Position numbers and translations under genes: made by a program. The notes under the pieces were generated by a model that saw only the letters and a program-made list of their open reading frames with translations, ran no database searches and had not been told where the DNA came from. A stretch of DNA of 64,000 nucleotides from Bacillota bacterium (lineage in GTDB: Bacteria; Bacillota_I; Bacilli_A; RF39; UBA660): the NCBI GenBank assembly GCA_023391185.1, contig JAEWBI010000004.1, positions 3,107-67,106 of the forward strand. The letters are read 5' to 3'. Shown piece by piece: positions 5,538 through 30,610 of the stretch (the stretch's first letter is position 1; each line of letters begins with the position of its first letter).

Positions 5538-6003
5538 TTTATTTGGATTAGTTGGTTGTAGTTCAGAAAAGACTGAAGAAAAAGTTGAAGAAGTAGCTCA
5601 GCACACTATAATGACAGTGAAACAAGGTGAAGATATTAAAATAAACACTAATGATATAACTTCTAATGCAACTTACTATAATTACGAAATAGATGGACAT
5701 ATAATTCAAATATTTGCAGTAAAAGCATCCGATGGTACTGTAAGAATAGCATTTAATACTTGCGGTGCATGTAATCCATCTCCTATGGCTTATTTTGTCC
5801 AAAAAGGCAATTATTTTGAATGTCAAAATTGTGGAAATATGTTTGAAATTGATGAGATAGGTTTAGTAAATAAACCTGGATGCTCTCCAATAGGCATACT
5901 AGATGATAATAAAAACGTAGATGGAGATAACATTACAATATCTAGTGGTTTTATAGAGACATATAAACAAAAATTTGAATCAATAAACATTTTTAAAAAC
6001 TAA
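5470..6003 (+). CDS. Lipoprotein with DUF2318-like four-Cys metal-binding cluster
   Basis: Signal peptide with LVGC lipobox. FNTCGACNPS...FECQNCGN cysteine cluster. GTG 5470 follows AAAGGAGA; ATG 5497 is an alternative start. Confidence 0.75.
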   Translation: MKQKLLQTRMKIIIPVMFLLVISLFGLVGCSSEKTEEKVEEVAQHTIMTVKQGEDIKINTNDITSNATYYNYEIDGHIIQIFAVKASDGTVRIAFNTCGACNPSPMAYFVQKGNYFECQNCGNMFEIDEIGLVNKPGCSPIGILDDNKNVDGDNITISSGFIETYKQKFESINIFKN

Positions 6004-6239
6004 GAATTTGTATTTATATTAATATAAACATATAAAAAAATGATGTTTGATATTCTGCTATCTTAATTATTTTTAGCTTAATAATAGGTTTTAGTTTACA
6101 AAATATTAACTTATCTTAAACTAGGGTTTTAGCAATTTTTGATATTATAATACAAAAAAACCTTGTTTTACTTATTTTTTCTTGTACATTAACTTAAGTG
6201 GTGGTATAATAATTCATAGTTAAGAAGGGAGGGATATTG

Positions 6240-6434
6240 ATGACAAAAGTTCTAGTACGTAATGGTAACGTTGACGGTGCCTTGAGAATGGTTAAACAAA
6301 GAAATGCCAAAGATGGCCTCCTAAAAGCAGTTCGTGAAAGACAAGAAGGTTATATGAAACCCGGAGTTAAAAAAAGAATGGCTAAAAAAGAAGCTATTAA
6401 AAATGCTAAAAAGAATAGTAGAAAATACAGCTAA
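6240..6434 (+). CDS. rpsU: 30S ribosomal protein S21
   Basis: MTKVLVRNGNVDGALRMVKQ...KKEAIKNAKK is a basic 64-aa protein. GGGAGGG RBS upstream. Followed by yqeY, as in Bacillus. Confidence 0.9.
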   Translation: MTKVLVRNGNVDGALRMVKQRNAKDGLLKAVRERQEGYMKPGVKKRMAKKEAIKNAKKNSRKYS

Positions 6435-6474
6435 GAGTCATTAAGGCTCTTTTTTATATAAAGGAGAACAAAAG

Positions 6475-6915
6475 ATGAGACAAACAGTATTAGATGATAT
6501 TATAAAAGCAATGAAGGAAAAAGATAAAGATACTTTATCAGTACTTCGTATGGTAAAAGGTGCTATGCAATTAGAAGAGATAAATGTTAAGCATGAACTT
6601 AATGATGAAGAAATGACAAGAATCATATCTAAGCAAATAAAAACAAGAAAAGATTCAATAGTAGAATTTGAAAAAGGAAATAGACAAGATCTTGTTGATG
6701 CTGTTAACTCTGAAATATCAATACTTGAAAGATATATGCCTGAACAAATGAGTGAAGAAGATATATCAAAAGTAATAGATGAAGTATTCAGTAAAGTTAA
6801 TCCAACTGGTCACTCAGATATGGGTAAAATTATGGGAATGATTTCGCCACTTGTAAAAGGAAAAGCAGATATGGGGCTTGTAAATAAGTTAATAAAAGAA
6901 AGATTATCAAATTAA
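6475..6915 (+). CDS. yqeY: GatB/YqeY domain protein
   Basis: LSVLRMVKGAMQ...RKDSIVEFEKGNRQDLVD...ILERYMPEQMSEEDI...DMGKIMG...VKGKADMGLVNKLIKE aligns along its length with B. subtilis YqeY. Confidence 0.9.
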   Translation: MRQTVLDDIIKAMKEKDKDTLSVLRMVKGAMQLEEINVKHELNDEEMTRIISKQIKTRKDSIVEFEKGNRQDLVDAVNSEISILERYMPEQMSEEDISKVIDEVFSKVNPTGHSDMGKIMGMISPLVKGKADMGLVNKLIKERLSN

Positions 6916-6981
6916 AATATGTTTATACATATTTTTTTTTATCTTTTTATTGTATAATGTAAGAATAGGGTAGGGATAATT

Positions 6982-8217
6982 ATGGGCGAGTTATATATTT
7001 TTAAACAAGAAAAATTAAAATATGAGTCTCAAATGGCTATTGAAGAAAATAGTTTTAATAAACAAAAATTAATGAAGGAATACCAAGACAAAACCAAAAG
7101 ATATTTAGGAACGGCAATAAGTATTATAAATAAGCATTTTAATATTAATTATTCTATTAATAAAGAAGCAGTTGGTATGACTGCAACTTTTCAAAAAATA
7201 AATACAATTGTTAGAAAAACAGATCAAGAAATATCAATTGAAATGGAACAGTTAATTAATCAAATACCAAATTTAGGTGTAAGTAATGAAGTCAAAGAAA
7301 CCATTGAATTAGCAATAGAGATAGTTAAAATTTATTGTACAAATGGAGTAGAAAATTCAGCTGTTGCTTCAGTTAACGATATAAATGTTTTTGAAGACAA
7401 TAAAATGACAAATGAAATAAGTGAAAGTCAAAATTCTGAAAGTATTGTTGAAGAGAAAGTTTCAAGTATGGATCAGGAAATTTTAGAGAAACGAAACACA
7501 TTAAAAAAAGATAGTCCATTTATTATATATAAATTAAAACTAGGATTATTAATAATACCAGTTATATCTATATTTATGTCTGTTATATTATTTTTTATAT
7601 TAAAAGCCCTTGCTAAATTACCATTTCTTTCTAGTATAATTGCTAGTGGTCATACAAATATAATGTATAAAATAATTGTGTATGGGATATTGTTTTTGTT
7701 ATCTTTGTTATTAACAAGCTTTATTTCTTCATTTATAAGTGGCCGAACAAATAATAAAATAGTTTTTATGATTTTACCTTTTTCTTTATTAATTCTATTA
7801 ATAATTTTTTCAAAACCAGCAATAAATTTTATAACGGAAAAAGAATATCTTGATGCTGTATCATTGCTTTACATTAATGTTTATTATGCATTTTCTATTA
7901 TATTTTTATATATGTTTATGGTACTATTTTATATTTTTTCAGTATTTAAAAAACATACCAAAACAGGCATAATTGAGTTTATAGATATAGGTATAATAAT
8001 TTATGTTGGTATTTTACCAGGAATTAAACATATATTAGATTTTCTTAAACTTGATCAGTTTGAAGGTATATTTAATACTTTATATAATTATCCAAAACAA
8101 AAAACTGTATTTGTAATTTTATTAATTATTTGTATATTATCAAATACAATTTATACTTTTATAAAATATAAAATAGATAATAAAAGTAGCAAAAATTTAC
8201 AAATGAAAGAAGCATAA
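6982..8217 (+). CDS. Polytopic membrane protein, unknown function (about 190-aa soluble N-terminus plus multiple TM helices)
   Basis: Long ORF with consistent codon usage. Terminator at 8217-8249. No motif recognised. Confidence 0.6.
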   Translation: MGELYIFKQEKLKYESQMAIEENSFNKQKLMKEYQDKTKRYLGTAISIINKHFNINYSINKEAVGMTATFQKINTIVRKTDQEISIEMEQLINQIPNLGVSNEVKETIELAIEIVKIYCTNGVENSAVASVNDINVFEDNKMTNEISESQNSESIVEEKVSSMDQEILEKRNTLKKDSPFIIYKLKLGLLIIPVISIFMSVILFFILKALAKLPFLSSIIASGHTNIMYKIIVYGILFLLSLLLTSFISSFISGRTNNKIVFMILPFSLLILLIIFSKPAINFITEKEYLDAVSLLYINVYYAFSIIFLYMFMVLFYIFSVFKKHTKTGIIEFIDIGIIIYVGILPGIKHILDFLKLDQFEGIFNTLYNYPKQKTVFVILLIICILSNTIYTFIKYKIDNKSSKNLQMKEA

Positions 8218-8249
8218 AAGAAAGAAATTTTACTTTCTTTTATTTTTTT
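8217..8249 (+). terminator. Rho-independent terminator
   Basis: AAAGAAAG-aaatttta-CTTTCTTT followed by a T-run. Confidence 0.6.
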
Positions 8250-8250
8250 A

Positions 8251-8280
8251 TTGACAAGTGTCATATGTTACGCATATAAT
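8251..8280 (+). promoter_or_regulatory. Promoter of the NrtR-like gene overlapped by an ACAAGTGT box
   Basis: TTGACA (8251-8256), 18 nt, TATAAT (8275-8280). The spacer begins with AGTGTCATATGTTACGC, an imperfect copy of the downstream palindromes. Confidence 0.6.
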
Positions 8281-8299
8281 ATAATTGTAGGTGATAAAT

Positions 8300-8974
8300 A
8301 TGGAAGTAAAAAATCCATTATATAAGAATCAGGGAATACATGTTATTTCAGCAATATTTACGGTAGAAAAAGGAATTACTAAAGTACTACTTATTAAAAG
8401 AAATAATGAACCGTTTAAAGACATGTGGGCTTTAGTAGGGGGAGCTCTATATAATAATGAAACTTTAGATCATGGTATAAAAAGAGAAATAAAAGAAAAA
8501 ATAGGCATTAATATTAAAAGTATTGAAATGTTTGATATTTTTAGTAAGATTGATAGATCTCCAGTAATGCGTATGATTGCTGTAGGTTATATAGGAATTG
8601 TTGATTCTTCAAAAGTTGAAGTTGTTAAAAAAACAGTTAAAACTAGTGATGCTGATTGGGTTCCAATTGATAAGATTGGAAAACTTGCTTATGATCATAA
8701 CGAGATAATTAATAAAGGTATTGAAGTTTTGAAACAAAAAATAATTAATACAGATATTTTAAAAAGTTTATATCCAGAAGGATTTACGCTTCCGGAAATT
8801 CAAAAAACATATGAGGCTATTTTAAATAAAGAGTTGGATAGAAGGAATTTTAGAAAGAAAATGCTTAGTTTAGACTTGATTTATGATACAGGTTTATCAA
8901 AGAAGTTTGAGGGAACTAAACCAGCTAAAATATATAAGTTTAAAGAAAATAGAGAAAGTAAAAATGTATTTTAA
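8300..8974 (+). CDS. NrtR-like regulator: Nudix domain fused to a C-terminal winged-helix DNA-binding domain
   Basis: Nudix box GALYNNETLDHGIKREIKEKIGI, with the last Glu of REUXEE replaced by Lys. C-terminal FTLPEIQKTYEAILNKELDRRNFRKKMLSLDLI...KPAKIYKF matches the NrtR wHTH. ATG 8300 follows AGGTGAT. Confidence 0.8.
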   Translation: MEVKNPLYKNQGIHVISAIFTVEKGITKVLLIKRNNEPFKDMWALVGGALYNNETLDHGIKREIKEKIGINIKSIEMFDIFSKIDRSPVMRMIAVGYIGIVDSSKVEVVKKTVKTSDADWVPIDKIGKLAYDHNEIINKGIEVLKQKIINTDILKSLYPEGFTLPEIQKTYEAILNKELDRRNFRKKMLSLDLIYDTGLSKKFEGTKPAKIYKFKENRESKNVF

Positions 8975-8997
8975 TACATTTTTATAAACTTATAACA

Positions 8998-9031
8998 AGT
9001 GTATTTTGCTACACATAATAGCAATACACTT
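8998..9031. promoter_or_regulatory. Inverted repeat AAGTGTATT-N16-AATACACTT with nested GTGTA-N6-TACAC (operator and/or terminator)
   Basis: Arms at 8998-9006 and 9023-9031 are exact reverse complements. The nested palindrome is 8999-9003 / 9010-9014. The T-rich run TTTATATA follows. Confidence 0.5.
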
Positions 9032-9046
9032 TTATATAGATTTAAC

Positions 9047-9066
9047 AAGTGTATAAAATTACACTT
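9047..9066. promoter_or_regulatory. Perfect 7-6-7 palindrome AAGTGTA-TAAAAT-TACACTT, candidate operator over a -10-like box
   Basis: Arms at 9047-9053 and 9060-9066. The spacer TAAAAT is a -10-like hexamer. The site lies 18 nt upstream of ATG 9084. Confidence 0.55.
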
Positions 9067-9083
9067 AGAGAAAGGGTGGATAT

Positions 9084-9677
9084 ATGTTTATTAATTTAAA
9101 AGAAGGAAAGTTAACACTTTATGATGTGGTTGTAAGTAAAAAAATGCAACCAGTGCTAGAAAAAATATCTTATGAAGGTATAAAAGAACATCACTCATTT
9201 ACTGCAACACATTGGTGTAATGAAGGAAGAAGAACAGATAACTCAGTAGTGAGAAATATGTACTGGCAAAAAACTGGAAGAGTAATTGAATATAATGATT
9301 TCTTTTCACAAGATGAAGATGAGTATTTAATAAATTATGATTTATATAAACTTCCTAATTTATATTTAATAATTGAAAGCTTATTAAAAGAAAAATATGA
9401 GATGCTCGGTGAACTGTCAAAATATCAAAGAGGTGAGAATTCAAACGCAATGGAAATGGATATATTTATAAAGCATAAAAATGAAATATATAATTATATA
9501 TACTTAAGAAAAATTATTGAATTAGACCCAAGTTTAGGATTGGAACTAATAGATGTTTTAAAATCAAATAGTAAAGGAAAACTAAAAGAAAATTTAAAGA
9601 ATATAAAGCAGTATTTAAATATTTATAGTATAGACTTAGAAGGAATAAAAGTTAAGGTGAAAGCAGATGGAAAATAA
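9084..9677 (+). CDS. Hypothetical protein (197 aa), first gene of the operon downstream of the NrtR-like gene
   Basis: RBS AAAGGGTGGA upstream. 11-nt overlap with the next ORF. No recognisable motif. Confidence 0.6.
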   Translation: MFINLKEGKLTLYDVVVSKKMQPVLEKISYEGIKEHHSFTATHWCNEGRRTDNSVVRNMYWQKTGRVIEYNDFFSQDEDEYLINYDLYKLPNLYLIIESLLKEKYEMLGELSKYQRGENSNAMEMDIFIKHKNEIYNYIYLRKIIELDPSLGLELIDVLKSNSKGKLKENLKNIKQYLNIYSIDLEGIKVKVKADGK

Positions 9678-10113
9678 TTATATTAAAGATTTAAGAGAAG
9701 TTGAAAATAGTTTTAATAAAATAAAAGATAAAAGAAGTAAGATTCTAGAACGAATGCATGAACTAGAAAAAATAGATGTTATTATTGAGTATCAAAAATT
9801 ATGTTCAAGTAATGAAACACTTTATAGACAACAAAATAATTTAATAGAAAAATATACTAATTTAAAACAAAAAAACTGTAAACATCCTCTTTGGTACTTT
9901 ATTAAAGAAGAAACTGATTCTTATGAAGGAAGAACATATTATACATGTAGATGTTTAGAGTGTAATTTAGTTGAAGAGCGCAGAAGTAGAGATTTTGATA
10001 ATGTTATTAGAGGTGATTATAGTAAGATTAAAGATGATTATGATAATAGAAAGTCTGTTCCATCTGTTAAGGCTATTCAAATGATAAAAAAATATAGTGG
10101 GAGAAAGAAATGA
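9667..10113 (+). CDS. Hypothetical coiled-coil protein with a C-terminal Cys cluster (CKH...CRCLEC)
   Basis: Overlaps both neighbours, with an ATGA overlap at its 3' end. N-terminal heptad-like K/E-rich region followed by a candidate Zn-binding cluster. Confidence 0.6.
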   Translation: MENNYIKDLREVENSFNKIKDKRSKILERMHELEKIDVIIEYQKLCSSNETLYRQQNNLIEKYTNLKQKNCKHPLWYFIKEETDSYEGRTYYTCRCLECNLVEERRSRDFDNVIRGDYSKIKDDYDNRKSVPSVKAIQMIKKYSGRKK

Positions 10114-10667
10114 TTTATTTATTAAGACATGGTCTAGATGATGAAAGTTTTATAGGAGGACATTCTGATGTTGAACTAACTCTAACAGGTATTTCACAGG
10201 TTGTGGAAGCTACAAGTTTCTTAAAAAATCACTGTTATAAAATAGAAAAAATTATATCAAGTGATATAAAAAGAGCAAGGCAGACAACAAAAATTGTTAG
10301 TGAAGGTTTGAATCTGCCTACAGAATATACTAATATCTTAAGGGAACTTGATAAGGGCAAATTAAATGGCATGCCAGTAACCCAAGCTAAAATATCATAC
10401 CCTGAATTCATAAATGTAGAAGATATTAATACCAAATATCCAAATGGTGAATCTATGCAGGAATTCTATGAACGAATAAAAAGAGATGTTGATAAAATAC
10501 TTTCTTTTGATAATTCATTAATAGTCACCCATCGTGGTGTAATTAACATGTTATATTTCATTTTAAATAATTTAGAACTAAATATGGACAAGAAACAGTT
10601 TGGGGTTGAACATGCTTCACTTCATGAAATAGATCCGAAAAATAAAGTTATAAAAAAAATAAGATAG
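10110..10667 (+). CDS. Histidine phosphatase family protein (phosphoglycerate-mutase-like, branch 1)
   Basis: LLRHG catalytic motif at residues 4-8, SSDIKRARQTT, and VTHRGVI second His motif. Confidence 0.85.
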   Translation: MIYLLRHGLDDESFIGGHSDVELTLTGISQVVEATSFLKNHCYKIEKIISSDIKRARQTTKIVSEGLNLPTEYTNILRELDKGKLNGMPVTQAKISYPEFINVEDINTKYPNGESMQEFYERIKRDVDKILSFDNSLIVTHRGVINMLYFILNNLELNMDKKQFGVEHASLHEIDPKNKVIKKIR

Positions 10668-10676
10668 GAGATTAAT

Positions 10677-11813
10677 ATGGGAAAGATAGTAGGGAAAATA
10701 GTTTTAACTGGTGGGCCTTGTGCAGGGAAGACAAGTGCTCTTACAAAAATTGAAGAAGAACTAACAGAAAAAGGGTATAAAGTATTTATTGTGAGTGAAA
10801 GTGCTACTGAATTAATAAAAGGTGGAATTAAACCATTTGGTAGTATGCCAATTGAATTAGTTAAATTCCAAAGTTTGATATTAAAATATCAATATGAAAA
10901 AGAAAAAATATATGAAGAAGCTGCTAAAAGCTTAAGTGATGATGAAAAATGTATTATAATTTATGATAGAGGCTTACTTGATAATAAAGCTTATATTAAT
11001 CAACAAATTTTTAATGAGTTACTTAAAGAACAGGGCCTAAAAGAATTAGAAATAATGGATAATTATAATATGGTAATTCATTTAGTAACTGCGGCGGATG
11101 GTGCAGAGGAAGCTTATACACTAGGAAATAATGTTGCTAGAACAGAAACTATTGATGAAGCAAAAGAACTAGATAATAGAACTGTAAATGCTTGGGCTGG
11201 ACATCCAAATTTAAGAATTATAGCTAATGAAAAAGATTTTGCTTCTAAACTTCAAAATGTTGTAGATGAAATAAACAACTTAATTGGCGAGCCTGTTTCT
11301 ATTAGAAAACAAAGAAAATTCTTAATTGATTTAGAAAACTCTGATTTATCATTTTTAACAGAAGATAATTCAACTGCTATTCATATTGAACAAACATATA
11401 TAAACGATAACCCTGACGTTGAAACAAGACTAAGAAAAAGAACTTACAATGGGCAAAGCTGTTTCTATTTAACAGTTCAAGTAAAAGAAAAAGATGGTAA
11501 ATCAACAGTTTTGACAAACAGAAAAATTACTGAGAAAGAATATACTAAACAGTTATCAACTGCTGTTTCTACTACTTCGGTATCGAAAAATAGATATTCA
11601 TTTTCAAAAAACAAACAGTATTTTAGATTAGATGTTTTTGATGAACTGAAAAACTATGCTTTACTCGAGATAGATCCTACTTATGAGAATTCAAGTATTA
11701 AACTACCTAAAGAAATAAGAGTTATAGAAGATGTTACTAATAGTCCCTATTACGACAATCATGTGATATCAGAAATGGTTACTTGTGAAAAGAATAAAGT
11801 TTTAATTAAATAA
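10677..11813 (+). CDS. NadR/AAA_28-like P-loop kinase domain fused to a CYTH (triphosphate tunnel) domain
   Basis: Walker A LTGGPCAGKTS, IIYDRG, RTETIDEAKELDNRTVNAWAGHPNLRII (AAA_28-like). C-terminal RKFLI...IEQTYI...ETRLRKR...RYSF...FRLDVF...LLEID CYTH pattern. Confidence 0.75.
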   Translation: MGKIVGKIVLTGGPCAGKTSALTKIEEELTEKGYKVFIVSESATELIKGGIKPFGSMPIELVKFQSLILKYQYEKEKIYEEAAKSLSDDEKCIIIYDRGLLDNKAYINQQIFNELLKEQGLKELEIMDNYNMVIHLVTAADGAEEAYTLGNNVARTETIDEAKELDNRTVNAWAGHPNLRIIANEKDFASKLQNVVDEINNLIGEPVSIRKQRKFLIDLENSDLSFLTEDNSTAIHIEQTYINDNPDVETRLRKRTYNGQSCFYLTVQVKEKDGKSTVLTNRKITEKEYTKQLSTAVSTTSVSKNRYSFSKNKQYFRLDVFDELKNYALLEIDPTYENSSIKLPKEIRVIEDVTNSPYYDNHVISEMVTCEKNKVLIK

Positions 11814-11836
11814 AATCGATAAAAAGCCAAAAAAAT

Positions 11837-11865
11837 GTTGTTATTCATATTTATTATGATATAAT
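11837..11865 (+). promoter_or_regulatory. rpsB promoter
   Basis: TTGTTA, 17 nt, then extended -10 TGaTATAAT. Leaves a 5' UTR of about 100 nt. Confidence 0.55.
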
Positions 11866-11970
11866 ATTAATGGCTTTTTTAATACACACGACAATGATTT
11901 TTATGCCTAGTGCCTTATGGTGGTGTAAAAAGTTGATTTGTTCGGAGGAAAAACAAAAGGAGGAAAAAAA

Positions 11971-13080
11971 ATGACAGTTGTTTCAATGAATTATTTATTA
12001 GAAGCTGGCGTTCACTTTGGTCATCAGACAAAAAGATGGAACCCAAAAATGAAAGAGTATATCTTTACTTCAAGAGATGATATTTATATTATCGATTTAC
12101 AAAAAACTGCTAAAAAGATTGAAGAGGCTTATGCAGCTTTAAATGCTATAGCAGCTAATGGTGGTAAAGTATTATTCGTAGGAACAAAAAAACAAGCTGT
12201 AGAAGCTGCTAAAGAAGAAGCTACTCGTTCAAATTCATTCTATGTTACAGAAAGATGGTTAGGTGGAACTTTAACAAACTTCAAAACAATTAGAAGTAGA
12301 GTTAAAAGATTAGAAGAAATCGAAAAAATGGAAAAAGATGGTACTTTTGAAGTACTACCTAAAAAAGAAGTTATCGGTCTAAGAAAAGAGTATGAAAAAC
12401 TTGATACTTTATTATCAGGAATAAGAGGAATGTATAAATTACCTAGCGCTATGATTATAGTTGATCCTTCAAAAGAAGATATCGCTATTAAAGAAGCTAG
12501 AAAATTAAATATTCCAGTATTTGGTATCGTAGATACAAACTGTGATCCTGATATGGTTGATTATGTAATCCCAGGTAATGATGATGCAATTAGAGCAGTT
12601 AAATTAATTTTAGGTGTTTTAGCTAATGCTATCGTTGAAGCTAACGGTGGACAATTAGTAAATTATGTATCTGCTGATGAAAAACAACCAACTGATATTA
12701 TGCAAAAAGCATTAGAAACAGTTAAGAAAAAAGAAGATAGAAAAAGACCATTCAATAACGACAGAAGAGATAACAATAGACCATTTAATAGATATGGAAG
12801 ATCTAACGATAACAGAAATAGTGATAACAGAAGTTATGACAATAGAAGTAACGATAATAGAAGAGAATTTAGAAGAGAAGATAGACCAGTAGAAGCTACA
12901 AGACAAGAAACTGTAAAACCTGTTATAGAAGAAAAAGTTGCTGTTAAAGAAGAAAAAGCCGTAGTTAAAGAAGATTTATCTACAAAAACAGTTGCAGAAC
13001 TTCGTGATTTAGCAAAAGCTAAAGATGTAAAAGGTTATTCAACAATGAAAAAAGCAGAATTAATTGATGCTTTAAAATAA
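11971..13080 (+). CDS. rpsB: 30S ribosomal protein S2 with a ~120-aa C-terminal extension
   Basis: [19 protein letters not shown]...[11 protein letters not shown]...VDTNCDPD core. ATG 11971 follows AAAGGAGG. The tail is N/R/D-rich and ends in [30 protein letters not shown]. Confidence 0.95.
12745..12890 (+). repeat. Degenerate short coding repeats (GAT AAC AGA-like, Asp-Asn-Arg) within the rpsB tail
   Basis: Encodes [43 protein letters not shown]. Confidence 0.7.
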
Positions 13081-13134
13081 ATTATATATAGATGATTGAA
13101 AAATCATCTTTAATTTTAAAAGGAGAAAAAATTT

Positions 13135-14010
13135 ATGATAAGTGCTAGTTTAGTAAAAGAATTAAGAGAATCTACAGGTGCTGGAATGCTTGATTGCAAA
13201 AAAGCACTAGAAGCTACTAATGGAGACATGGATGCTGCTGTAGATTGGCTAAGAGAAAAAGGAATTTCAAAAGCTGCTAAAAAGGCTGATCGTATTGCTG
13301 CTGAAGGTTTAGCTGAAATAATGATTTCTGGAAATATTGCTGCTATAGTAGAAGTAAATTCAGAAACAGATTTTGTTGCTAAGAATGAAGAATTTACTTC
13401 AATGGTTGATGCAATTCTTACTACAATTATTGCAAATACTCCTGAAACAGTAGAAGATGTACTTGCTTTAACTTATGAGAATGGAACAATTAATGATTTA
13501 ATCGTTAATAAAACAGCAAAAATTGGTGAAAAATTATCTTTAAGAAGATTCGAGAGAATTGAAAAAAACGATAACCAAGTTTTTGGTTCATACATTCATA
13601 TGGGTGGAAGAATTGCTGTTTTAACAGTAATCGAAAATGCTAGTGAAGAAGTTGCTAAAGATGTTTCTATGCATTCAGCAGCAATGAGACCAGCATATGT
13701 AAAATCTTCTGATGTTCCAACTGATGTTCTTGACAAAGAAAAAGAAATAATAAAAGAACAATTATTAAATGAAGGTAAACCTGCTGATAGAATCGAAGGT
13801 ATCCTAGTTGGTAAAGTTAAAAAATATTATGAAGATGTTTGCCTTGAAAATCAAATCTTTATTAAAGCAGAAAATAAGGAAACAGTTGCTGAGTTCGTAG
13901 CAAATAATGGTGGAACAATTTCTACTATGGTTCGTTATGAAGTTGGTGAAGGCATGGAAAAAAGAGAAGAAAATTTTGCAGAAGAAGTTGCAAAACAAAT
14001 TAACGGATAA
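13135..14010 (+). CDS. tsf: Elongation factor Ts
   Basis: ASLVKELRESTGAGMLDCKKAL UBA-like N-terminus, VEVNSETDFVAKNEEF. Directly downstream of rpsB. Confidence 0.95.
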   Translation: MISASLVKELRESTGAGMLDCKKALEATNGDMDAAVDWLREKGISKAAKKADRIAAEGLAEIMISGNIAAIVEVNSETDFVAKNEEFTSMVDAILTTIIANTPETVEDVLALTYENGTINDLIVNKTAKIGEKLSLRRFERIEKNDNQVFGSYIHMGGRIAVLTVIENASEEVAKDVSMHSAAMRPAYVKSSDVPTDVLDKEKEIIKEQLLNEGKPADRIEGILVGKVKKYYEDVCLENQIFIKAENKETVAEFVANNGGTISTMVRYEVGEGMEKREENFAEEVAKQING

Positions 14011-25514: not shown

Positions 25515-26414
25515 ATGGAAGGGTATATAAATGATTTTATTGAGTTTCTTGAGATTGAAAAACACTATTCTAAAGAAACGACAGAAAATTATAATATAGA
25601 TTTATACTTATTTTTGGAATATTGTAAAGTAAATAAACTAAGTGATTTTAATAAAATAACTTATGATTATTTGCGAAAATATTTAGTATATTTATCTACT
25701 GTAAAAAAATATTCCAATAAATCTATATCTAGACATATAAGTTCTCTTCATAGTCTATACAATTATTTAATTGATGAGAGAGTAATTGATAGTAATCCTA
25801 TGAATTTAATAAATAGTCCTAAAAAAGAATTTAGACTTCCTACTTATCTTACTACAAATGAACTTGAGGACATCATTAATACTCCTGATAGAACTAAGAA
25901 GGTTGGTAAAAGAGATATATTAATACTTGAAATGTTTTATTCAACTGGTATCAGACTTCATGAACTTGTTAATATAAAAATAAGTGATATTGACTTTATA
26001 AATAAAAAAATAAAGATATTAGGTAAAGGTTCAAAAGAAAGATATGTTTTATATGGAGATAGATGTAAAGATTATTTAGAAGATTATCTAAATAATTCTC
26101 GAAATCATTATTTAAAGGAAGCAAGTGATTATTTATTCTTAAATCAACATGGAAATGTACTTACTACATCGGGAATAGAGTACTTAGTTAAGAAAATACT
26201 AAAAGAAAGTGGTACTAATATTAAACTTACACCGCATGTATTAAGACATACCTTCGCTACACATATGCTTGATGAAGGAGCTGATTTAATGACTGTAAAA
26301 GAATTACTGGGGCATTCTAATCTATCAACAACAGGTATATACACACATGTATCTAATGAACATTTAAGAAAAACATATTTAAGCGCTCATCCAAGAGCAA
26401 GGAAGGAAAAATAA
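25515..26414 (+). CDS. Tyrosine recombinase, XerC/XerD family
   Basis: N-terminal SAM-like core-binding domain. LFYSTGIRLHEL (Arg), GKGSKER, HVLRHTFATHML (H-x-x-R), LGHSNLSTTGIYTHV (catalytic Tyr). Confidence 0.9.
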   Translation: MEGYINDFIEFLEIEKHYSKETTENYNIDLYLFLEYCKVNKLSDFNKITYDYLRKYLVYLSTVKKYSNKSISRHISSLHSLYNYLIDERVIDSNPMNLINSPKKEFRLPTYLTTNELEDIINTPDRTKKVGKRDILILEMFYSTGIRLHELVNIKISDIDFINKKIKILGKGSKERYVLYGDRCKDYLEDYLNNSRNHYLKEASDYLFLNQHGNVLTTSGIEYLVKKILKESGTNIKLTPHVLRHTFATHMLDEGADLMTVKELLGHSNLSTTGIYTHVSNEHLRKTYLSAHPRARKEK

Positions 26415-26415
26415 T

Positions 26416-27039
26416 ATGGCAAAATTATATTTTAGATATGGCGCAATGAATTGCGGAAAGACTACAGCCCTTATACAGGTAGCTTATAATTATGAAGAAA
26501 GAGATCAAAGTATTGTCTTAATAAAACCTTCAGTTGATTTAAAGGGATCTGATCATGTAATTACTAGAACTGGTTTAAATAGAAAAGTTGATAATTTAAT
26601 TAAACCAGATGAATCTATTATTGAGACATTAAAAGAACAATTTAATAGAGTTAATTGTATTTTAGTAGATGAGGCGCAATTTTTAACTGAAAAACAAATA
26701 GAGGAATTATTTGTGATAACGAAGATATATGAAGTTCCAGTTATTTGTTATGGGCTTAGAACTGATTTTAAAACTAATTCGTTTCCAGGAAGCAAGAGAC
26801 TTTTAGAACTTGCTGATGAACTTGCTGAACTTGAAACTATTTGTAGATGCGGTAGTAAAGCTAGGTTTAATGCTAGAAAAGTAAATGGTCAGTTTGTTTC
26901 AGAAGGAGCACAAGTTGCCATTGATGAAATGGATGATGTAACTTATGAATCTGTTTGTGGTAAGTGCTATTTAGAAAAAGTAATGCACTATGAACAAGGC
27001 AAAGTATTAACCTTTAAAAAAAATGATAAAAAAGTGTAA
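26416..27039 (+). CDS. tdk: Thymidine kinase
   Basis: GAMNCGKTTALI P-loop, VDEAQFL, and CRCGSKA...CGKCY zinc site. Confidence 0.9.
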   Translation: MAKLYFRYGAMNCGKTTALIQVAYNYEERDQSIVLIKPSVDLKGSDHVITRTGLNRKVDNLIKPDESIIETLKEQFNRVNCILVDEAQFLTEKQIEELFVITKIYEVPVICYGLRTDFKTNSFPGSKRLLELADELAELETICRCGSKARFNARKVNGQFVSEGAQVAIDEMDDVTYESVCGKCYLEKVMHYEQGKVLTFKKNDKKV

Positions 27040-30584: not shown

Positions 30585-30610
30585 AATTGTATGCAAATAC
30601 AATTTTTTTT
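30584..30610 (+). terminator. Rho-independent terminator
   Basis: AAATTGTAT-gcaa-ATACAATTT followed by a T-run. Confidence 0.7.

Follow-up and report, generated by a model that had tools for sequence, protein, structure and literature searches.

A row of five same-strand genes in the stretch of DNA analysed here (the window: 64,000 nucleotides of Bacillota bacterium contig JAEWBI010000004.1, assembly GCA_023391185.1) places two small orphan proteins (g1 and g2), a histidine phosphatase (HP) and a P-loop kinase fused to a CYTH triphosphate-tunnel domain (G4) behind the gene of an NrtR/AraR-family repressor (nrtR). Our preferred reading, which we hold at somewhat short of even confidence, is that of a repressor-gated module controlling how far a nucleoside- or nucleotide-like metabolite is phosphorylated. 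One genome per species was scanned, which gave 580 stretches encoding a G4 relative; 80 loci were fetched, and linkage was counted over 78 of them. Of these, 28 have nrtR ahead of G4. About 20 loci have HP as the operon neighbour of G4, mostly immediately before it; HP falls between nrtR and G4 in most of the nrtR-G4 loci, and in one lineage (P0118) the two are joined in a single 552-aa HP::G4 protein. Of the 25 NrtR-linked loci whose G4 is full-length, 12 have a thymidine kinase gene (tdk; Pfam TK, 4e-27) inside the operon, at one of three positions (nrtR-tdk-HP-G4, nrtR-tdk-G4 and nrtR-HP-G4-tdk). Gene co-occurrence had been named in the preliminary description of this DNA as one check on whether the genes form a module; given the conserved neighbourhood, the HP::G4 fusion and a conserved operator, the unrelated-neighbours reading is effectively excluded. 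The functional linkage claimed there thus stands, but the fixed five-gene unit does not: what recurs is a regulator with interchangeable modules behind it, namely HP-G4, the thymidine kinase, the g1+g2 pair and a dCTP-deaminase/radical-SAM cassette.

The chief new finding lies in the CYTH domain, which Pfam did not detect in the single G4 sequence. Its eight-stranded beta-barrel tunnel fold was confirmed in two ways: a profile of 21 family sequences matched the NE1496 entries 3typ/2fbl in the PDB (E 1e-8, residues 229-366), and the G4 structure model gave Foldseek matches to 2fbl (4e-9) and to the kinase plus triphosphate tunnel metalloenzyme (TTM) domains of Arabidopsis TTM1 (AtTTM1, 7z67; 1e-8). 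ExExK is the hallmark metal- and substrate-binding motif of CYTH proteins and is likewise missing from AtTTM1/2 (PMC8233210). The window G4 has RKQRK in its place and E331-I-D333 instead of ExE, the second Glu being Asp; the basic tunnel residues K214, R251, R253, K304 and R306 are conserved. Across an alignment of 77 full-length G4 proteins, every one of the 48 homologues without nrtR has an intact motif (E-x-E-[RK]-[KR], in most cases EIERK) and every one of the 25 NrtR-linked homologues a degenerate one ([RQK]-x-[QE]-x-K); the two sets form separate clades in a neighbour-joining tree. The stand-alone proteins of bacteria and archaea (clade A, annotated as 'AAA family ATPase') share the length, the architecture and the invariant GGPCAGKT, DRG and NNxARxE motifs of the window G4 at 35-42% identity; they differ in keeping EIERK and ExE, in being usually monocistronic and in having no NrtR, HP or thymidine kinase gene adjacent. 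Their neighbours are heterogeneous (HAD hydrolase, SHMT, ECF S-component, unknowns) and gave no functional lead. Triphosphatase chemistry of the NrtR-linked domain is unlikely, because the metal-binding motif is lost throughout that clade. The clade with the catalytic motif stands alone, whereas the clade with the degenerate motif always comes with a Nudix repressor and usually with HP, which leads to the hypothesis of a tunnel enzyme turned sensor domain.

Regulators of the XRE helix-turn-helix (HTH) type adjoin the kinase-CYTH gene in several loci (L075:65-787, L044:6377-7075, also L046, L047 and L057). The L075 protein has a CYTH domain in Pfam; those of the L044 type have only HTH_3 in Pfam, and their CYTH domain is deduced from BLAST clustering with G4. 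Such proteins suggest that a CYTH domain of the G4 kind can act as ligand sensor in transcription factors, and their position beside G4 fits a sensor role for such a domain.

Operon anatomy, regulator and candidate operators

The window is low in GC (about 24-31%), and the positions of its features are collected in Table 1. The four chained open reading frames (ORFs) of the preliminary description were recovered with the same coordinates and junctions: g1 and g2 overlap by 11 nt, g2 and HP have a common ATGA at 10110-10113, and a 9-nt gap with AGGAG inside it separates HP from G4. A purine-rich ribosome-binding site (RBS) was read in front of every start, and a consensus scan of 8975-11813 found no terminator-like site, in agreement with the earlier impression of an uninterrupted operon. 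The hairpin and T-run noted downstream are also there, as a branched structure that is likely the operon end; it overlaps a site called by the promoter scan, which may serve rpsB. Against L001, a locus whose G4 is 94% identical, dN/dS is 0.04-0.16 across all five genes (0.04 for the regulator, 0.13 for g1 and 0.16 for g2), and since this shows purifying selection, g1 and g2 are real genes.

That an NrtR-family gene precedes the four ORFs was confirmed by Pfam matches above the cut-offs for both domains of the product (NUDIX PF00293, 9e-13, 48.8 bits against 21.1; NrtR_WHD PF21906, 8e-21, 74.4 bits against 27). Its Nudix box is degenerate (REIKEK). The gene most likely starts at ATG 8300 behind AGGTGA rather than at the mechanical ORF start, GTG 8291, because homologues begin MEVKNPLY. 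The suggestion that the regulator senses ADP-ribose fared less well. In full-length matches to PDB entries it scores higher with the L-arabinose-binding BtAraR (5bs6, 1e-33) than with the ADP-ribose-binding SoNrtR (3gz5, 6e-24). When the ligand residues described in PMC4666351 were mapped onto the alignments with these two proteins, the pentose-contacting Arg/Arg/His triad of both was found to be retained, and the ADP-contacting Arg98 of SoNrtR to be Val. The NCBIfam equivalog TransRepNtr gave 125.7 bits, the cut-off being 400. Judged from these comparisons, ADP-ribose is a possible effector but not the favoured one. Characterised NrtRs sense ADP-ribose or NAD (PMC2330246, PMC4666351), and the founding paper of the family reports as targets only genes of NAD, pentose and ADP-ribose (ADPR) metabolism and nrtX/nrtY (PMC2330246). 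In about 35 related loci, none of the annotated neighbouring genes was one for NAD salvage; many of the flanking genes there are unannotated. The annotations of nrtX and nrtY are Band-7 and PpnK-type proteins, so that neither would have any kinship with HP or G4.

An operator candidate is embedded in the nrtR promoter, and about 25 related loci show the arrangement TTGACA-AGTGTA-N5/6-TACAC-ATATAAT ahead of nrtR. A second palindrome follows in many relatives, about 24 nt past the nrtR stop and before the RBS of the next gene, and both sites are kept in relatives whose G4 identity falls to ~40%. In the window the 109-nt nrtR-g1 spacer contains a tandem duplication, each copy of which is a promoter-like unit with an operator palindrome (O1 and O2). 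These are the best two matches to AAGTGTA-N6-TACACTT in the 64 kb, O2 with 0 mismatches and O1 with 1. Window-wide matches amount to 10 observed against 8.6 expected, with no overall enrichment, so the weight of the operator rests on phylogenetic footprinting; no further regulon member was found by operator match within the 64 kb. The AT-rich hairpin over the nrtR stop, whose sequence recurs at the same position in L001, L002, L004, L018, L100 and others, could serve as a weak terminator or else represent a degenerate third operator. The spacing of GTGTA-N5/6-TACAC differs slightly from the published 21-bp NrtR consensus (PMC2330246); the positions of the predicted sites match published NrtR behaviour and support autoregulation together with control of the downstream genes.

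Table 1. Positions of the operon, its candidate control sites and nearby features in the window
Feature	Position	Strand	Description
yqeY	6475-6915		Left flank of the operon, with the next gene
Membrane protein gene	6982-8217		411 aa, multi-pass, just upstream of nrtR
nrtR promoter	8251-8280	+	TTGACA-18-TATAAT; sole 12/12 sigma-70 match in 6000-13200
Operator-like imperfect palindrome	8256-8275		AAGTGTC-N6-TACGCAT; between -35 and -10 of nrtR promoter
nrtR	8300-8974	+	NrtR/AraR-family regulator; N-terminal Nudix-like domain, C-terminal winged helix
Hairpin over nrtR stop	8958-8985	+	AT-rich, 12 bp, then U-run; AATGTATTTTAATACATT; -9.9 kcal/mol, z = -3.6
Tandem ~50-bp duplication	8973-9017 and 9023-9067	+	Direct repeat in nrtR-g1 spacer
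O1 palindrome	8997-9016		AAGTGTATTTTGCTACACAT; inside ATAACA-16-CATAAT at 8992-9019
O2 palindrome	9047-9066		AAGTGTATAAAATTACACTT; perfect palindrome
g1	9084-9677	+	197 aa
g2	9667-10113	+	148 aa
HP	10110-10667	+	185 aa, histidine phosphatase
G4	10677-11813	+	378 aa, kinase-CYTH fusion
G4 N-terminal domain	10677-11288	+	aa 1-204; P-loop kinase, Pfam AAA_28 1e-18
G4 C-terminal domain	11289-11813	+	aa 205-378; CYTH/triphosphate-tunnel barrel, degenerate metal site
Branched hairpin ending in U-run	11821-11879	+	-16.3 kcal/mol, z = -3.65
Promoter-like site	11838-11865		Overlaps the branched hairpin
rpsB	11938-13080		Ribosomal protein S2; right flank of the operon, rpsB-tsf
XerC/D-type recombinase gene	25515-26414		Directly ahead of thymidine kinase gene
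Thymidine kinase gene	26416-27039		Pfam TK, 4e-39
Near-perfect 20-bp palindrome	30585-30604		AATTGTATGCAAATACAATT

Some neighbouring features were recorded alongside. The S2 protein has an unusual architecture, with a C-terminal extension of ~130 aa made of low-complexity DNR repeats followed by Rho_N (PF07498, 2.6e-9). The multi-pass membrane protein had no family match, and a homology search recovered it only in a few relatives of the same synteny (L001, L002, L018, L107). The distant palindrome at the end of Table 1 lies between a 250-aa unknown ORF and the gene of a pilin-like leucine-rich-repeat protein, and bears only a loose likeness to the operator half-sites.

Kinase domain, phosphatase and interchangeable cargo genes

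The preliminary description had read the last gene as a NadR/AAA_28-like kinase fused to a CYTH domain; the fusion was borne out, and the NadR likeness beyond the P-loop was not. AAA_28 is also the family of the NadR kinase domain. The label 'NadR-like' is valid only at this broad Pfam level, because the hhalign match between the G4 profile and E. coli NadR covers the P-loop only (26 columns, probability 22.7%), as against 99 columns from the P-loop through DRx...AY for E. coli Tmk (probability 54%). NadR chains were absent both from the PDB profile matches with E<=1 and from the 50 best Foldseek matches; the Foldseek matches of the kinase domain are thymidylate kinases (TM-score 0.65-0.70). 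The AlphaFold2 (AF2) model of G4 has a predicted local distance difference test score (pLDDT) of 84.7 and a predicted TM-score (pTM) of 0.85, and the Walker A motif GGPCAGKT, the DRG motif and the lid residues Arg155/Glu157 are invariant in the family. Tmk is the best structural neighbour of the domain, alignable from the P-loop to DRx...AY, but not an orthologue: G4 falls below the Pfam (E 0.01) and NCBIfam (9e-4) thresholds, has another lid and carries the fused CYTH domain. No canonical Tmk was found in the window or the fetched loci, which is uninformative at that scale.

The third ORF encodes an RHG histidine phosphatase, as had been proposed (Pfam His_Phos_1 PF00300, 7e-32, 111 bits; branch 1), with an intact catalytic core RHG...R...E...H (LLRHG, KRARQT, RELDKG and THRG, read in the translation) and no signal peptide. 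None of the equivalogs CobC, GpmB, SixA and PspA reaches its NCBIfam cut-off. The nearest NCBIfam and PDB relatives, all below family cut-offs, are the CobC alpha-ribazole phosphatase and the FBPase-2 domain.

g1 and g2, described from the start as matching nothing recognisable, had no match in Pfam, NCBIfam, PADLOC, PHROGs or the PDB sequences by single-sequence searches. Judged by their distribution in sequence searches, both are small, fast-evolving and narrowly distributed families. For g1, a word-indexed search gave 14 clusters, a profile search of 1.84 billion representative proteins 24 clusters only, and a metagenome scan with a narrow alignment two loci only; the word-indexed search for g2 gave 6 clusters only. 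The g1 family has a conserved N-terminus, MFIN[LI]xxGKLxLYD, and a core TGRxIEYNDF...YDLYxLP. Structure prediction and fold comparison, suggested earlier for both orphans, were carried out for g1: its AF2 model is weak (pLDDT 66) and had no Foldseek match at E < 0.1. In g2 the N-terminal coiled coil was upheld, and the cluster that had been written as CKH...CRCLEC is reassigned to a zinc ribbon of the form C-x-H...C-x-x-C, which is conserved among 10 members of the family.

The closest relatives of the window are metagenome-assembled genomes (MAGs) labelled Bacillota or Bacilli. Among the fetched G4 loci, g1 and g2 themselves occur only in the nearest of the relatives (L001, and L107 from a metagenome). 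Relatives of g1 follow nrtR in L081, L100, L104, L105, L107 and L108. Remote relatives of g2 stand beside g1-like genes behind nrtR in L100, L104, L105 and L108, and near G4 in L033 and L051. The gene order is nrtR, g1-like, HP::G4 in L081; nrtR, g2-like, g1-like, HP, G4 in L100; and nrtR, g2-like, g1-like up to the contig end in L104. The pair follows nrtR with HP-G4 present in the window, L001, L100 and L107, and without HP-G4 in L105/L106 (a spore-former) and L108; on the evidence of gene order it is therefore a separable, co-inherited module under the same regulator, not intrinsic to HP-G4. Remoter g1-like or g2-like genes adjoin HP or G4 in L010, L012, L013, L033, L051 and L076. A lone g1-like gene was also seen in a cell-division cluster (L102:5001-5597), between mraY and ftsW at the usual position of murD, with no nrtR, g2, HP or G4 nearby.

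The exchange of cargo can be seen in L002, a locus of a sister species, where G4 is 81% identical and the flanking synteny is the same as in the window. The exact g1/g2 slot (L002:6676-9437) is taken there by a P-loop protein, a 405-aa radical-SAM protein and two tandem dCTP deaminases, both above the TIGR02274 cut-off. The radical-SAM protein has weak matches to pVip (5e-11) and matches MoaA better than viperin.

The kinase-CYTH fusion itself is widespread, being encoded in at least 580 representative species genomes, mostly of uncultured gut Bacilli, Clostridia and Erysipelotrichaceae, with homologues also in MAGs labelled Saccharibacteria and in one labelled Nanoarchaeia. In several predicted prophage contigs from IMG/VR (L092-L098), a clade-A gene lies within the first 0.4-2 kb, and ORFs of ~340 aa on the opposite strand follow a few kb further in. 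Because the gene sits at the very ends of these contigs, it most likely belongs to the host flank; it may be a marker of surroundings into which prophages repeatedly insert, and not a phage-borne gene. A search of GenBank phages for homologues of g1, g2 and G4 was negative.

Proposed mechanism and competing explanations

In the mechanism that we favour, a locally acting repressor from one subfamily of the NrtR/AraR type would bind GTGTA-N5/6-TACAC between the -35 and -10 of its own promoter, and also one or two palindromes right after its own gene, so that the genes behind it stay silent until the repressor is freed by a pentose-containing ligand. G4, the constant cargo of the clade, could bind a triphosphate ligand (for instance an NTP, a dNTP or inorganic triphosphate) in its tunnel without hydrolysing it, and the ligand-bound tunnel would gate the fused kinase, by analogy with the inactive tunnel domain of plant TTM1, which is catalytically incompetent and contacts the kinase domain (PMC9582702). 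The cytosolic HP might supply the opposing or complementary dephosphorylation, and might thereby provide the phosphohydrolase activity lost by the tunnel. The zinc-ribbon/coiled-coil protein g2 probably works with g1 as its small alpha/beta partner. The weakest step is the substrate area, which would most likely be pyrimidine deoxynucleoside/nucleotide salvage or pool balancing; it is pointed to by the repeated recruitment of thymidine kinase together with the dCTP deaminases of L002.

Several points weigh against this reading. The resemblance to Tmk is one of fold and motifs only, and any nucleoside monophosphate (NMP) or nucleoside kinase could look alike. The split between intact and degenerate ExExK counts as a single evolutionary event, since two separate clades imply one ancient divergence, kept up ever since, rather than 25 unconnected events. 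Some catalysis by a CYTH domain that lacks ExExK is also conceivable, as pyrophosphatase activity has been reported for AtTTM2 (PMC8233210). The stand-alone clade-A genes have no informative neighbours. The thymidine kinase gene of the window lies outside the NrtR operon, directly behind the recombinase gene, and for this genome the link between the two is therefore indirect. A 215-aa protein in L026 that had been read as ThyX was dropped from the argument (Pfam E 0.016, no PDB confirmation).

A more specific form of the same idea appears doubtful as a whole. It would have the regulators form an NrtR/AraR subfamily with a pentose- or nucleoside-type ligand other than ADP-ribose, the dead tunnel act as an allosteric (d)NTP or triphosphate sensor of the kinase, HP replace the lost hydrolase, and g1-g2 constitute a new effector module that answers to the same signal. 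Together they would make up a system for nucleotide homeostasis or signalling, hitherto unrecognised, in gut Bacilli with reduced genomes.

NAD or ADP-ribose salvage, which had been raised in the preliminary description, is unlikely. ADP-ribose would then lift repression, G4 would be a kinase of the nicotinamide-riboside type, and HP a phosphatase of nicotinamide mononucleotide (NMN), nicotinic acid mononucleotide (NaMN) or phospho-ADP-ribose. Such a route would suit the NrtR domain pair of the regulator, given the ligands of characterised NrtRs, and the best Pfam family of the G4 kinase domain, AAA_28, to which the NadR kinase domain belongs as well; the CobC relatives of HP act on alpha-ribazole-5'-phosphate, an N-glycosidic ribotide like NMN. 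Moreover, in one lineage (L044, L057 and L069) a SIR2-family gene lies with a small GNAT acetyltransferase gene 1-3 kb upstream of nrtR; SIR2 is the only NAD-consuming enzyme seen near any nrtR-G4 operon. However, pnuC, nadD/E, pncA/B, nadV, prs and niaP were not seen in any annotated neighbourhood, the G4 profile meets NadR in the P-loop only (probability 23%) and NadR is missing from the PDB profile matches and the Foldseek top 50. The regulator is nearer to the arabinose-sensing AraR and lacks Arg98 of SoNrtR, and recruitment has brought in thymidine kinase and dCTP deaminases instead of NAD enzymes.

It is quite improbable that the slot from nrtR to HP-G4 is a conflict or defence hot spot, gathering anti-phage or stress cargo that is induced once NAD breakdown products or a nucleotide imbalance betray an infection. 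The cargo at the identical slot does vary between relatives with 81-94% G4 identity, and g1 and g2 are small, fast-evolving and narrow in distribution. dCTP deaminases are known defence enzymes, the radical-SAM protein of L002 has its weak pVip matches, and the L105 module is bordered by toxin-antitoxin genes and RhuM. Nevertheless, PADLOC is empty for g1, g2, HP and G4 (the Nudix domain of the regulator alone matches a candidate model, PDC-S07), homologues are lacking in GenBank phages, and the radical-SAM protein is closer to MoaA. The operon sits in conserved housekeeping synteny (yqeY ... rpsB-tsf), dN/dS is not raised (0.13-0.16), and the occurrence of G4 homologues in the small-genome lineages labelled Saccharibacteria and Nanoarchaeia argues for housekeeping salvage.

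Very improbable, too, is a nucleotide kinase linked to polyphosphate or triphosphate, in which the tunnel would hold tri- or polyphosphate as donor or regulator in the manner of PPK3. PPK3 is a kinase of the TMPK superfamily co-expressed with SixA and a CHAD protein (PMC12995831), so that its operon likewise carries a SixA-type histidine phosphatase, and the fold matches of G4 include the S. tokodaii structure 5h70, apparently the homologue of a PPK3 subunit to which the same paper refers. The nearest CYTH structure is of the NE1496 type and the basic tunnel residues are kept. Yet 5h70 is one among about 40 equivalent TMPK matches, no ppx, ppk or CHAD gene was seen in any neighbourhood, and the Nudix regulator and the recruitment of thymidine kinase and dCTP deaminase are left unexplained.

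A kinase, a phosphatase and a Cet1-type fold together recall the Pnkp/Trl1 end-healing enzymes. RNA-end healing, with G4 as a 5'-OH polynucleotide kinase bearing an RNA-triphosphatase-derived tunnel and HP as a 2',3'- or 3'-phosphatase, finds a weak KTI12 match across the P-loop in its favour and is the least probable of these explanations, since the fold and profile matches are small-molecule NMP kinases, ligase, Hen1 and RtcB were unseen among the annotated neighbours, the tunnel metal site is lost in the NrtR-linked clade, and thymidine kinase recruitment points to free nucleosides.

Relation to known systems

Kinase-CYTH fusions were noted earlier at the domain level (cited in PMC8233210), and variation among NrtR regulons is known. 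In the literature searched, no function was described for the bacterial fusions, and there was no description of the regulon content, of the two-clade split or of the g1 and g2 families; the claim that the combination is undescribed therefore holds, in line with the range of targets in the founding NrtR paper. The finding would widen NrtR-family regulons past NAD and pentose metabolism, and it gives two very small protein families of unknown kind a place under a defined regulatory signal. Where organisms live by nucleoside and nucleotide salvage, such a module may help to balance scavenged nucleotide pools.

With the NrtR/AraR family (PMC2330246, PMC4666351) the window has in common a Nudix-like domain joined to a winged helix, a degenerate Nudix box, the pentose Arg/Arg/His triad, palindromic, promoter-overlapping operators built on a GT...AC core, predicted autoregulation and adjacent targets. 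It differs in the targets, which are a kinase-CYTH protein, HP, thymidine kinase and two unknowns instead of genes for NAD, PRPP or pentose catabolism, in the GTGTA-N5/6-TACAC spacing and in the Val at the place of SoNrtR Arg98.

The plant proteins Arabidopsis TTM1/TTM2 (7z67, PMC9582702) have the same plan as G4, an N-terminal P-loop kinase fused to a TTM barrel without ExExK. Their kinase is of the uridine/cytidine-kinase type, and they carry a coiled coil and a mitochondrial tail anchor, whereas G4 is soluble and AAA_28/TMPK-like. G4 had no Pfam match to PRK/UCK and no C-terminal transmembrane segment, so the likeness is one of working principle only. The clade-A relatives of G4, unlike plant TTM1/2, keep an intact ExExK. 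The plant and bacterial fusions are probably independent. Finally, 6-phosphofructo-2-kinase/fructose-2,6-bisphosphatase (PFKFB) unites a P-loop kinase and a branch-1 histidine phosphatase in one polypeptide, as P0118 does. Its domain order is reversed, the kinase sequences are unrelated and it has no CYTH domain; the parallel, which is an analogy only, suggests opposing activities on one metabolite.

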